DNA of 64,000 bases from Sphagnum compactum (lineage: Eukaryota), in assembly GCA_965153455.1 (NCBI GenBank), contig OZ234494.1, positions 12,772,001-12,836,000 on the forward strand, in the 5' to 3' direction. Below, one piece after another: positions 13,201 through 46,338 of the stretch; position 1 is the stretch's first letter, and every line of letters starts with the position of its first letter. Below the pieces are notes generated by a model. That model was not told where the DNA came from. It made no database searches and saw only the letters and a list, made by a program, of their open reading frames with translations. Made by a program: the position numbers and the translations under genes.

Positions 13201-15124
13201 TTTGGATTTTGTAATGGCCTTTACACTGTCAACTGGATATGGCAAAAGAAGAGGTAGTAAGACTAAAAAGTAGGATAGTCCTCACTAAAAAACTTCTTGC
13301 AGACTATGATTAATTTACAAATGCAGCATTGGCAAACATTTGATCAGGGGTGGGGATAAGCAACTTAATGCTTAATGCCCTGATTGCTTGCCGCCACCAC
13401 CCGGAAGATTGTGAGTGCAGTCTGGAAGCGGTTTGGTTTCTTCAGGGATGCACCATTCTATCATGTGTATGGCAATGTGGATGCACCAATCGTGGAAAGG
13501 AGACGACAAGGTGGCAAGGATGGCAGCTGTGGCTTGAGTTGGGTATTAGAGAAAGTTGCTGGTTAGTTATGTTACAGACTGGTTTTGGTGTGGTGATCGG
13601 TTTTTCACATGAAGATTGTAGTGGATTATCTGCTTCAATGTGGTAGACAAGAAGCTTAGGGAGAATAGAGAGGGAGTGCAACTTTGCCAAAGCAGAGGAT
13701 ATGTAACAGGGAGCTTTCTTCTCATATTGGACCTACTGCATAGACCAAAACAAGGCGATGGGTTTTACTACTTTTGGAGTTTCAAATGAAGGGAATTCAG
13801 CTGTCATACTGCCATGACCTTATGTCTCACACACAAAGCATCAGACAGTCAACCTTTATCATCAATAGCAGTATCTACCCACTCTCGCCACTAACTTCAT
13901 TAGCAAGTGTAGATAATTATAGAAGGAAATTCCAGAAATTTTAGCCAAACAATTACACAAAACATGTACAGGCCGATTACAGTGTTTTGATGACCAACAA
14001 GCACATACAAGATTATGCAGCAGAAAGTTTTAGTAAAGTCTAAAAGCTTCAGCCATCACAAACCAGACCACATGAACTAATTTCCGCTACATCATTACGA
14101 ATCACTTGACTCATTTGCTCAAACTTGACAAACCCACACACTCAGCCTTTGATGTGGCCTGCACTCACACAGACAGAAACTCTCTACCATCGTTCAAGTT
14201 GAGTTCCAAGAGCCTTTGAACAATTTCCCAGCTATGTTTCCTTTGCACACTGGATCCTACAAGCACATCTGCATATAAATCTGTAAGACCTCTTAACAAA
14301 ATTGAGAAGGATGCATTCACCTAACACAACACCATAGCTGTTCAAAATATTAATTATCATATATGGTACTACTGTAAGCAGCCTCAACACTACAAGGAAT
14401 GCAAACAGTACATACACATTAAAAGCAAGGTCACAGTAATTTCCAATCTGAGAAAGGTGCTTCAAAATTTGGACATTTTATGAGAGGAATTTCCGTTCAG
14501 GAAAACAAAGTGCTTTCATAACTATTCACAGCTACAGTTGGCGAGCAGTGACAACAGGGATCTGAAAACAGTGCACAGAAAAGACTAAACTAGATCCAGA
14601 ACAAGAAGTCTTTACACAAATAGGAATCTTGCACTGCACAGATGATTCATTAACCCTTTTAAAATAGAAGTCATTAGTGTAGAGTGCACTTACCTCTTAA
14701 ACCATAAAAGGTGTGGGTAGAACGGGACCTTGTATGAATGCTGCATCAAACAGCAGACAAGGGCTACTACTTCAACTAAATTAATGTAGCCCAGCCTGTT
14801 AACAGGGAGAGACATTCCCTCAATTTGGTGGGAACACATAAACACATGTAACCTCCAAAAAGCTAAAGAACAGAGCCTGCAAACTGGCTCTTAGGACCAC
14901 ACCTCAGTGATTAGTTCCTATTAATTACCAACATGAAGTGCTGATTCCAGGCAGGCAATGGTTGCCAACTAAGGTAAATAATGAAATAAACCACCTGCTG
15001 CTTTCAACATGAGATGTGCCTGCTAATTGCCAGAGGCCTGAGTATGCATACTCCAAGCTCTTGACAGTAACAATCTACAGAAAAAAAACATAAGTCAACA
15101 TCAGGGCAGTAGTTGTGGGCAATT

Positions 15125-18100
15125 CTACAATCCAGGGTGAGACTGCTGCAAACAGGATTCAACACGGTTTGTACAGATGTTGTTGCATGGAAGCAGGGTA
15201 CTTGTCACCATTGAGTCAGTTACCAATGATGCATCACTGAAATCCAATCTCCCAAGGCGCCTGTTGAATCAACATCTCAGGTATTGTTAAAACATCCAAA
15301 CCAAGGAAACAATGTGATAAGGAACTAAGAACCCTCCTGGACATACAAAACTTTACAATCTGTTGAGTTCTAGAACTAACCTTTTCTTCAGTCGGTTGTT
15401 GATTGCTGTCAAGTCCTTTGAAGGGCTTTCATACGCAAAGGCACTCTCCCCAACACATGCATACAAGCTGCGTGTGTGTGGTGACATCAGAGTGTCCACC
15501 TGCAATGGCATCTTGAGATTAAGTCCAGCTACAAATGGAGGCAACTGATTCACAGCCCAGTCAAGTATTAGAACAAACTCCTGGAGCTGTATGCACTTAG
15601 CAAACAACTGCAGGATACATTCTAATCAGGTGTGGGAAGAAAGCATGATTCATTGCTTACTGACTAACCAAAAATGTTCACACAAAGGTTTTGTTTAAAT
15701 AAACAAATGCTGAGGCTGCACATTGATACACCCCTAGTACAGGTTACCAGCACTCTTTATATTCACAGACAGTAAAAAAATTGGACAGCAGGAAAGACAT
15801 GATGACAGCTATTCCCCATGATTGTTGAGCAACCCTTCCAAGGAAACACCTGAGGTGCCCAACACCACAGTGAGACATTCTTCCACCTTATAAGGTAGGG
15901 TCCATTGCTGGATAGCATACCTTAATAGCCCGAAGTGGTGAAACATACACATTGTGCATGGCTGATACTTTTTTGGGAGACAAGTCTGGTAGAACTGGAA
16001 AAGCAGGAGGTTCTGGAGATGCAGGTGAGTCACCTGCAACACATAATAATCCTGTCCCACAGTTAGGAGAAGAGGGAACCGGGAAGGAACAATTGACTGT
16101 GTCATCCTGCTGCTGCTTTGAAAGGATGGATGAAACGATACAACATCATCCAGATCTCTGCTGATTTTTGGTCAAGACATCTAGCAGCCATCCTACAGAT
16201 ACCTCACTCAAAGTCAAACATCATCCTCATAATCCAGCTACATTGCTTCCATTCTATTGGTAACAGGTACAGCTTGCCAAATATGCCACTGGCTGAATGC
16301 CAGCAACAAACAGCAGTCTAGTCTGGTTTAGTTCATGTTCAAAGCTCAGAGCAGAGAACAAACAACAAAATGAAAGCATGTACATTCAAACCTTTGACTG
16401 GTTACCTCCCAAACATGCATAACAAGTAGCACACGGTTTTGCATATAGCTTCACAAGGACAAGCCCCTCAAACTGTCAGGAGGGCCAAGGCTCCCTTTAC
16501 CGTTATGATAGTCTCCTTCATCTGAACCATGAGTGTTGCCTGAAGCAGGTGTAGCACCACTTGTGCCAATTTGCAGCAAGAATGTCTTGGTCGAATGCAC
16601 AAAAATTTCATTGTAAAACTTGACTATATCACCTGTCTCCTGACCTCCTGCCTTCTGCACCCCAGAAAAAGGGTTAAAATGCTATGAGTTTGGAGAGAAA
16701 ACTCTTCAGTGGCACTTTGAAGGTAACCTACACAGATGAATGCAGCCATATCCTCATGAGTATCACTCACAAAGTGTCAGACCATCACCTTCCATCACAA
16801 ACAGCAGAGACAACCTGAAGTGGCTTCCACTGACTTTGGCAGCTCCAAACAGTGGCTGTAAATAAGTATAGAACATCCACCCAAATTTTTGGGCAAACCA
16901 TTGTACAAAAATTCTGTCTTAAGCTTTCTTTTGCATTTCTGGAAGAAATGAAAAGACTCATTCATGATGCTGCCTAGCACTCACAAAGTATATCCAATAG
17001 TATGCTTGAATCATTCTAGCTTGTTCCTGTACAAGCAAGATCTAGGCCGTAGACAGGCCTACTTTCAGAATAACAGTTACAGCCTCCTGCACACTTAACA
17101 TCTCCATTTATGCACACCAGATATGTCACTATAATACCACTTCATACGTCATTTCATAAAATTACAAAGTACACACCCCAGCTCGGCGCCAGGGAGGTAG
17201 GTCGATGAAGACATTGCGAAACACATGGAGCTTGCATTGTGGCTGCATCCGATACTGATGGATAATATCACGAAATGTCACAGTTGCTTTGCTAACCTGA
17301 GCCACCAAACAAACAGCCAATACAAGCTACCAATTACAAAGTGAACACATTCTAGCACCATGGTGAGACCAAACTCCTTGTGTACACTTCCCTTAAGAGA
17401 ATTGACAGCAGCACATCTAAAAGAAACTCTATGGAACTCAGACTTTCCCTTGGACCCACTCTGGGAATACTTCTTCACACAAATGCTAACAGTTGCCAGA
17501 GGTCAAAAATCAAGTGCCCAAACAGGATGCATGTGAACAATGGTGATGGACTCACCTTGCAGACACCATAGATGGTGCAAAGTATGAGCTGATCAATGTG
17601 CCGATTGAAAAATAGGCTAGTCTCGTGGTGCAAAGTGTGCTGGAACACACGGTACACACGCTCAACTAATGGCTGTGGCTGCCCAAGGCGTTCACAGAGG
17701 TTCCGTATTCTTACAGCTGCAAGAATTAGTACCTGAACATCCACTCATCACCACTTAGATAACAATCAAGTGATAAACTGATATGGGTTGGGAGATGGAG
17801 GCATGCTGTTTGACTCCATTGAGTAAAACACCATCAGGCAGAAATTACCACTAAATCCATCAGGTTCTCAACAGAAAAAAGAGCAGAAAGTAATCATGCT
17901 CATCAGCGGATTAAAGGGCAACAACTGAGAGGCACATAACACAGCTACTACAAATATCACACCAGTCACTGAAATTCCTTATCCCTTAAATGTGGATACA
18001 GAGCTTGAAGCAATCCCTACATAGTGATATACTATAGAGAGAGAGAGAGAGAGAGAGAGAGAGAGAGAGTTGCACAATGTCACCTTTTGAAAGAAAACGT

Positions 18101-45400: not shown

Positions 45401-46338
45401 TACCAAGCCCTCATGTTGGTATTAATCCATGAAATAGCAATTTAGATTGCTGACCTACAGTGATCATTTTATTTGACTTTGCCTTCATTTCCAGAGCACA
45501 AGTACACATTCTCCTATTGAAGTGAACTTTGAGAAAGCTTATGATGTGAGAAGAAATCTTGAATGTGGCCCAGATCTTACATTTCCATCTAGAGATATGT
45601 GGTCAGTGATTGAGAATTATCAAAGTGGCTGGTATCTTTGAATGGTAAGTGGCCTGTTCGTTCTTTTACGCCGGGTTTGGTGCCAGGTGAGTTTGTTCAT
45701 ATGCTGGGAGATGCTCGTGTATACAAAAATCATGTGGAACCTCTCCAAGAACAACAAAGAATACACCCAAGACTTTTCCTGTGAGTTTCTTCTTCTTGCT
45801 GAAATTGCCCACTGTAATTTTGATGCGCTTCGACTCCCAGTGGGTTTTTGGTTCCATTTTTCACTTTAGTATTTTGTTTAGTTGCTGGAAGTCCAAGGCA
45901 GACATTATGATGTATAGGTGCAAGTTTTATACTTATCTACACCCACTCTTGGGAGCTGACAAAGCAGTGGGTAGTCACTGCTATTTATGATGATGATGAT
46001 AGTCTGACACTTTGTGAGTGACTCTCATGAGGTTATGAATGCACTCATTGTTGTGCTACCTTCAAATTGTTGTGGAGATTGCTCTGCTATTTTATGGATA
46101 AGTAGTGGAAAATTTTTTTTGCTCATCCATGCTATGTAGACCAGAAATGGACCTTATAAGCCTGCAAAATGGAAGCTATGTGCTAGTAGTGTCCTGAAGC
46201 TATTTGAGTTGTCTGTGTTTGTTGAAAGGTTTTATGGACCAAGCTTACACAGATCAATACTGATGACTTTATCGCTGATGATTTTGAACTGATTGGTTAT
46301 CAATCCCACAAGAGAATTTGTATGAAGATGGCCTGTAA
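42496..46338 (+). pseudogene. DHFR-TS: Non-processed bifunctional dihydrofolate reductase-thymidylate synthase pseudogene
   Basis: DHFR motifs QIVVAA...GIGRNGQLPWKL, NAVVMGR and VFVIGGGQVY. TS exons [56 protein letters not shown] and the last exon DFELIGYQSHKRICMKMA. Lesions: stops TAA 43295, TGA ~44130 and TAA 45254, several frameshifts, a lost donor after FGCQ and two mutated acceptors. Confidence 0.93.

Follow-up and report, generated by a model that had tools for sequence, protein, structure and literature searches.

The DNA analysed here, called the window below, is a 64,000-nt stretch of the Sphagnum compactum genome (contig OZ234494.1, positions 12,772,001 to 12,836,000), and positions are counted from its first letter. 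Four genes in it concern us. RBR lies on the minus strand (Pfam: RB_A 2e-62, RB_B 7e-22, DUF3452); a J-domain gene and an LmeA/DUF2993-like gene gave Pfam matches under the cut-off, and for both the minus strand was taken from spliced stranded reads; and DHFR-TS (42539-46429) is transcribed from the plus strand (Pfam: DHFR_1 6e-18, four Thymidylat_synt exons). Self-comparison of the window revealed a diverged repeat of ~300 nt in or beside all four genes, and we argue below that its copies are probably tails of a retrotransposon of the Penelope-like element (PLE) class. When an nhmmer profile made from six of the copies was rescanned over the 64 kb, nine significant copies (E 1e-98 to 5e-15) and one weak fragment were found, in agreement with the initial annotation, which had counted about nine and placed three in RBR, two in the J-domain gene, three in the DUF2993-like gene and one in DHFR-TS. 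The copies are 160-390 nt long and 69-88% identical to a consensus that was built from these same copies. They are as follows, with E values from nhmmer:

13809..13967, minus strand: putative PLE tail copy, old and partial, lying downstream of RBR beyond its final exons (E 4.8e-15; columns 82-254 of the profile)
16657..17046, minus strand: putative PLE tail copy in an RBR intron, between exons matching RB_B columns 8-71 and 122-143 (E 1e-98)
20613..20965 (nhmmer 20615-21017), minus strand: putative PLE tail copy in an RBR intron (E 1.5e-82), with a candidate 8-bp target-site duplication (TSD) ACTATTAC at 20605-20612 / 20966-20973
32381..32755, minus strand: putative PLE tail copy at the 3' end of the J-domain gene (E 9e-87)
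33962..34306, minus strand: putative PLE tail copy within the 768-nt J-domain gene intron 33769-34536 (E 2.7e-92; spliced reads 33768>34537, 15 in run X22)
40058..40331 (nhmmer 40057-40400), minus strand: putative PLE tail copy within the LmeA/DUF2993-like gene, in intron 39925-40368 (444 nt; E 6e-85; joint 39924>40369)
41355..41560, minus strand: putative PLE tail copy, truncated member of a tandem pair, in intron 41297-42119 (E 5.7e-17; joint 41296>42120)
41660..41967, minus strand: putative PLE tail copy, second member of the tandem pair, in intron 41297-42119 (two pieces, E 1.5e-21 and 1.3e-6)
45854..46120, plus strand: putative PLE tail copy in the last DHFR-TS intron, between exons matching Thymidylat_synt columns 195-223 and 238-265 (E 4.8e-57)
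26947..27004, plus strand: weak 58-nt fragment of the same repeat, between RBR and the FHA gene (E 2.4e-4)

Stranded polyA reads together with RNA contigs served as the evidence for introns. Minus-strand introns 33769-34536, 39925-40368 and 41297-42119 (768, 444 and 823 nt) each contain repeat sequence, the last of them holding both copies of the tandem pair, and introns of 148, 167 and 575 nt carry no copy. According to the spliced reads, the copies fill only part of their introns, and the three introns with sense copies are spliced normally. The copy at 20615 is flanked by open reading frames (ORFs) that were read as RBR exons; Pfam was run on the upstream one only (21087-21491, DUF3452). 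Copies 32381 and 13809 lie at or past the 3' ends of their host genes, outside introns. At the J-domain gene, polyA depth falls off inside the 5' part of the sense copy 32381-32755, at about 32600-32800, and the 3' end of this gene may be formed within or adjoining that copy.

All nine copies are sense to their hosts, where the sense strand of the element is taken as the strand that carries the reverse transcriptase (RT) ORF of the related elements described below, the reverse of the strand used for alignment. Eight share one strand and lie in or beside minus-strand genes, while the ninth, 45854-46120, is flipped and lies in the plus-strand DHFR-TS. Since non-repeat flank was duplicated along with the repeat in the 41355/41660 pair, these two copies represent one insertion that was later duplicated, as had been suspected from the start. 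This leaves eight independent insertions, 8/8 of them sense (two-sided sign test, p ~0.008), so the single orientation rule first noticed by the initial annotation stands in the window.

The repeat extends well beyond this locus. In run X18, taken as DNA from its even depth of ~18x, the copies are covered tens to ~170 times as deeply as unique sequence, so the family is high-copy. Relatives were collected by scanning metagenome contigs with a 17-letter core pattern, which gave 121 moss-type loci; the window profile made 137 matches in 98 of these, and the matches fall into two families. In the window-type family (class 1), one end is sharp and common to the copies, ...CATATCTATGAGATTGCAGAG in alignment orientation; from there homology extends 320-570 nt and then ends at varying places. 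The sister family (class 2) is younger, with copies 85-98% identical to their own consensus; its sharp end is ATATCTTTCATAAGAATAGAG..., and the opposite end lies anywhere from 257 to 2247 nt away. With one end sharp and shared and the opposite end variable, the copies are 5'-truncated. Extensions of 2.2 kb beside some copies were at one point considered part of the element, and proved to be host loci related to each other.

Around five class 2 copies (L037, L067, L054, L058 and L011) we found TSDs of 10-17 bp, with both junctions read by eye. Such TSDs, combined with an end that is fixed and another that varies, are the signature left by target-primed reverse transcription when copies are truncated at the 5' end. 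In the window the TSD search gave nothing for seven of the nine copies, which are probably too old to show one. The statement that the repeat lacks TSDs thus holds for these seven; it fails for 40058-40331, bordered by the 11-bp direct repeat AGAGAGAAGAA (40047-40057 / 40332-40342), and for 20613-20965 with its 8-bp direct repeat. At the former, (TA)n extends the 3' end of the copy. The accompanying statement, that there is neither a terminal inverted repeat (TIR) nor poly(A), was correct: the copies end without an inverted repeat, and the element 3' end (...AGATATG; common end in sense ...CTCATAGATATG) has no A or T run.

Head-to-tail neighbouring tails were seen in L061 (4774-6026), L038 (4162-5028) and L030, an arrangement suggesting either a preference for earlier copies as targets or the formation of partial tandems known from PLEs. 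The L061 pair consists of an old class 1 copy and a young class 2 copy that stops precisely where the 3' end of the older one lies. A full-length element with a pseudo-long terminal repeat (pLTR) was not seen among the loci, and the tandem pair in the window arose by the later duplication described above.

The nature of the parent element can be read from class 2. On the strand opposite to the alignment, class 2 loci contain ORFs with the RT motifs FDFSTLYTKID, GIPMGTNCAVYLANFYL and FVDDLFV. A protein database search with the RT ORF L067:5445-6503 returned 87 homologues at E <= 1e-5, 617-1053 aa long, the best of which (P0001) is 40% identical to it over 337 aa. Nine homologues were scanned: a GIY-YIG domain lies near the N-terminus in eight of them (residues 22-222), and weak matches to RVT_1 occur in the C-terminal half of four. 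L023 and L067 align colinearly to residues 186-931 of P0001, a span that takes in the CxC stretch between the endonuclease and the RT, where 'HSCCACSHFPSFVDSHHG' of L023 aligns to 'QPCPCNDPHYAPYVHPQHG' of P0001. Pfam made no match to the moss class 2 RT ORFs and found nothing in L023:6590-7546. Likewise, GIY-YIG was not found in the moss loci by Pfam or by tblastn with P0001, in which the alignment begins at residue 186; these copies may be 5'-truncated. Naiad/Chlamys PLEs, as far as the available part of Craig et al. 2021 describes them, carry an N-terminal GIY-YIG, then CxC, then RT, are heavily 5'-truncated and usually lack hammerheads (PMC8557442). Judged from the predicted proteins, the architecture of the class 2 homologues is that of these Naiad/Chlamys PLEs. 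More diverged PLE RT remnants also occur in L063 (4706-6239), L058 (1474-1964), L060 (3981-4366) and L016 (2028-2323); because they are 35-67% identical in amino acids to the class 2 ORFs, several PLE lineages coexist in the moss contigs.

The window repeat is connected to this element through its 3' tail. When searched with a class 2 profile, seven window copies gave colinear matches (E down to 2e-18), in which class 2 columns ~185-353 correspond to window-type positions ~150-390 from the common end, a block of ~170-200 nt, and the terminal 30 nt are alike in both families (GAGAAATCTCCA and the ATATCT end). Since the class 2 ORF stops ~450-500 nt before the element end, the window copies correspond to 3' untranslated region (UTR) only, which accounts for the lack of any coding remnant: 0/39 extended class 1 copies reach coding sequence, and none was seen in the window either. 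An open sense frame ('CCFQKCNRKSGC...') in three copies was considered as a possible coding sequence and rejected. Pfam gave nothing but a sub-threshold Fer4_6 hit, and the non-coding tail of the sister family has the same frame, so that this is shared DNA and not a gene. From these sequence comparisons we conclude that the window repeats are very probably old, dead 3'-terminal (3' UTR) pieces of a Naiad/Chlamys-type PLE.

We then compared the orientation of elements and genes outside the window. For a test based on Pfam, 100 non-redundant element-bearing loci were used with the elements masked, and 300 of the 468 longest nearby ORFs were scanned. This labelled 27 loci (26 with a single gene strand, and L049 with convergent genes), leaving out the bacterial contig L013 and the sub-threshold L039, L003 and L008. 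Relative to the nearest labelled ORF, 28/33 elements are sense and five antisense, with 19/22 sense within 1500 nt and 11/11 within 800 nt. For the five antisense elements the labelled exon is 816-5139 nt upstream, and they may be in a neighbouring gene. As a second measure we used base composition, the gene sense strand having T>A and G>C in the Sphagnum compactum genome, a proxy that agrees with the Pfam strand in 24/26 loci. With masked flanks of +-1500 nt it makes 97/105 elements sense (class 1, 56/61; class 2, 41/44), as well as all 74 of the 74 elements with a clear index; distal flanks only (700-2500 nt) give 88/104, and one element per locus gives 58/68. Among class 2 copies with sufficient flank, the nine youngest (>=94% to consensus) are sense without exception. 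The strand asymmetry near insertions stays level over +-1000 nt and is therefore regional, not a target motif. The elements are thus sense to the surrounding transcription unit, in all independent window insertions and in about nine of ten cases elsewhere, and the proposal that a mobile repeat had been inserted or retained strand-specifically extends past the window. One further line of evidence was set aside: polyA reads over the core 40160-40207 have a strand bias of 60:1, and as their main loose-end consensus sequences match the tail of the sister PLE family, these reads are largely the PLE's own transcripts and were rejected as evidence of host co-orientation.

How might such copies come to be sense? 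In the scheme that we propose, the nuclease would nick DNA and the RT would copy the element RNA starting at its 3' end, mostly halting early, with the hairpins described below probably being what the RT recognises. A common 3' end, varied 5' ends and flanking TSDs would be expected because each copy would be made by target-primed reverse transcription. Purifying selection in this haploid-dominant moss would afterwards remove copies whose purine- and A-rich antisense strand enters pre-mRNA, and the U-rich sense strand, resembling plant introns, would be tolerated in introns and 3' regions; selection against antisense copies could be efficient in a haploid-dominant plant. The antisense strand is purine- and A-rich, and donor-like AAG|GTAAC (AAGGTAAC) and acceptor-like TTTCTGTTGCATTTCCAG|A motifs were noted in it by eye. 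That purifying selection is the main cause of the sense bias is a tentative view, to which we give a little less than an even chance; for the statement as a whole, PLE tails laid down by target-primed reverse transcription with a sense orientation owed mainly to purifying selection, we lean slightly in favour.

Several points tell against this account. GIY-YIG was seen in distant homologues only (27-40% identity), not in the moss copies, and the window-type repeat is tied to the PLE by ~200 nt and a terminus shared with the sister family, with no copy traced into the ORF. The splice-like motifs of the antisense strand come from reading by eye. The composition proxy is indirect and may be inflated by unmasked remnants, and 16/104 elements disagree with it when distal flanks are used. 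Metagenome contigs probably over-represent unique, gene-rich DNA, so our counts speak for genic copies. Finally, the youngest copies are already 9/9 sense, and young and old families are biased alike (41/44 and 56/61), which fits an insertion bias at least as well as selection.

This last point leads to the strongest competing explanation, which accepts the same PLE tails and has co-orientation arise at integration: elements would insert preferentially into transcribed DNA, and the nuclease/RT complex would discriminate between template and non-template strands, giving new copies a sense orientation from the outset. Besides the youngest copies and the equality of the two families, the regional asymmetry fits, being flat over +-1000 nt as transcription units predict, and so does the size of the bias, which far exceeds the antisense bias of mammalian intronic LINEs and LTR elements that the available part of PMC3088655 ascribes to selection. 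On the other hand, the part of PMC8557442 available to us describes no such mechanism for PLEs; the youngest copies are already 2-6% diverged, time enough for selection in a haploid plant; and a few antisense copies do exist (5/33 and 8/105). We regard strand-specific, transcription-coupled integration as a possible but rather unlikely cause. If it were true, it would be a mode of targeting undescribed for PLEs, and it would explain how hundreds of copies are tolerated in peat-moss genes. Literature searches found no paper on selection or on integration bias in PLE orientation, and none by title on sense-oriented intronic PLEs. The integration mechanism of PLEs is poorly understood, and many dated copies in the genes of a haploid plant make selection versus integration testable.

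A different identity for the window-type repeat would be a separate non-autonomous element, similar to a short interspersed element (SINE) or a retrozyme, that borrows a PLE 3' tail for mobilisation in trans. The clustering of window-type copies at 320-570 nt, the failure of every extended copy to reach coding sequence and the difference from the sister family upstream of the shared block would all be expected of such an element. Its 5' ends, however, are not fixed, and with a sister 3' UTR of ~450-500 nt, copies shorter than 570 nt could not have shown an ORF in any case. In addition, no hammerhead or other Rfam match was made, and heavy 5' truncation is typical of PLEs in the available part of PMC8557442. 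We therefore find this alternative improbable, and retain the truncated PLE tail as the identity of the repeat.

The hairpins named in the initial annotation are real locally. Stems H1-H3 are retained on the sense strand of both families:

H1, sense: CUGAGU...CUGUUGC-loop-GCAACAG...ACUCAG
H2, sense: CCCACUG...CAGUGGG
H3, sense: AUGGCAG-loop-CUGCCAU in class 1; GUGAUAG-loop-CUAUCAU in class 2

The stems were hand-picked and their pairs then counted. For H3 this gave 30 double-sided changes and 91% pairing over 66 copies, a level reached by 0/500 column permutations, although the copies are related and few of the events are independent; for H1 and H2, pair counts over the 66 copies were not convincingly above permutations. 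RNAalifold found no consensus structure for the 66 copies, and whole-element folding reaches z = -1.65 versus shuffles. The description "hairpin-rich" is therefore apt for four short stems and not for the element as a whole. Rfam 15, which the initial annotation had proposed as a check, matched none of the copies, whether at gathering score or with the limit relaxed to E <= 5, and gave 0 matches in five metagenome loci at E <= 1, hammerheads included. An A/B box or a tRNA-like head was sought by eye, with no dedicated scan, and nothing convincing was seen. We read the stems as 3' UTR structure of active elements, not as a host RNA.

The initial annotation had favoured a structured RNA element (snoRNA-like, SINE-like or regulatory), a classification that does not survive, as there is no Rfam match and the copies are better described as 5'-truncated PLE 3' tails. 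The version in which the host needs a functional intronic RNA and therefore keeps it could draw on the local stems, the intron location and the sense orientation. Yet in addition to the empty Rfam search and the modest folding score, the copies decay as neutral DNA does, with whole stems deleted, and they have TSDs, 5' truncation and hundreds or more genomic copies, as the depth in run X18 indicates; we consider a host function very improbable. The idea of an introner-like element creating its own intron deserves next to no credence: copies are intronic and sense, and in two cases one end is ~30 nt from a splice site, but the repeat makes up only an internal part of introns of 444, 768 and 823 nt, two copies lie outside introns, and the hallmarks of a retrotransposon are present. 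Two copies had seemed to fill their introns until spliced reads revealed larger ones.

Two ordinary classes of short repeat were also rejected. TIRs, the mark of an ordinary miniature inverted-repeat transposable element (MITE), were looked for and none was found: the copy ends carry no inverted repeat and are unrelated in a 32-row alignment. Against a tRNA-derived SINE stand the varying 5' ends and the 3' end ...AGATATG without an A/T run, the boxes having been sought by eye only. With plant SINEs and MITEs the moss repeat shares being short (a few hundred bases), non-coding and gene-associated; it differs from them in its lack of TIRs and of a poly(A)/poly(T) tail, in its variable 5' ends and in showing no convincing A/B box by eye.

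The closer comparison is with Naiad/Chlamys PLEs, as described in the available part of PMC8557442. In common are GIY-YIG, CxC and RT (in the homologues), 5' truncation, head-to-tail neighbours (L061, L038), the lack of a canonical hammerhead and, in a few copies, microsatellite-like 3' junctions, with (TA)n at 40058 and (CA)n in L019 on the aligned strand. Differences are the peat-moss-type host, a GIY-YIG that is unseen in the moss copies themselves, and the near-uniform genic sense orientation, of which that part of the paper makes no mention. The hosts listed there are green algae, spike mosses and a slime mould, and mosses come up only through "a small number" of BlastP hits; the available part of a second paper lists land-plant PLEs only from conifers and Selaginella (PMC9033089). 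Our literature searches found no paper on PLEs in Sphagnum. What had been a candidate new intronic RNA would thus give way to a documented retrotransposon family.

The orientation itself is notable, because genic retroelements are usually depleted in sense, and here ~9 in 10 are sense, young copies included. According to the available part of PMC3088655, mammalian intronic LINEs and LTR elements are biased antisense, ascribed to selection against sense copies; near exons, human Alu elements are slightly more often sense, which is explained there by cryptic acceptors in antisense Alu. The moss elements resemble the former as intronic retroelement copies of non-random orientation; they differ in that the bias is to sense and much stronger, so that Alu near exons is the nearest analogy in that text (PMC3088655).

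Some further features of the window were noted. We take YQRS.D...PFN to be conserved substrate-binding residues of thymidylate synthase, and set this pattern against the corresponding DHFR-TS exon; the gene may be a degenerate paralogue, in line with the word "pseudogene" used for it in the initial annotation. Between the RBR promoter and the FHA gene (24000-28500), strand composition changes to plus sense, and the flipped fragment 26947-27004 is concordant, its local strand composition likewise indicating the plus strand; this part of the window may contain an unannotated plus-strand transcription unit. Just upstream of the J-domain gene, at 35890-36571, there is a three-copy repeat with telomere-like AATTAGGGTTTCAC motifs that polyA reads cover, and its depth of 46,000-82,000 in run X18, versus ~18 for unique sequence, indicates an extremely abundant family. 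Finally, tandem arrays lie at 57581-58359, 25595-26070 and 662-1186, with periods of ~42, 101 and 115 nt.

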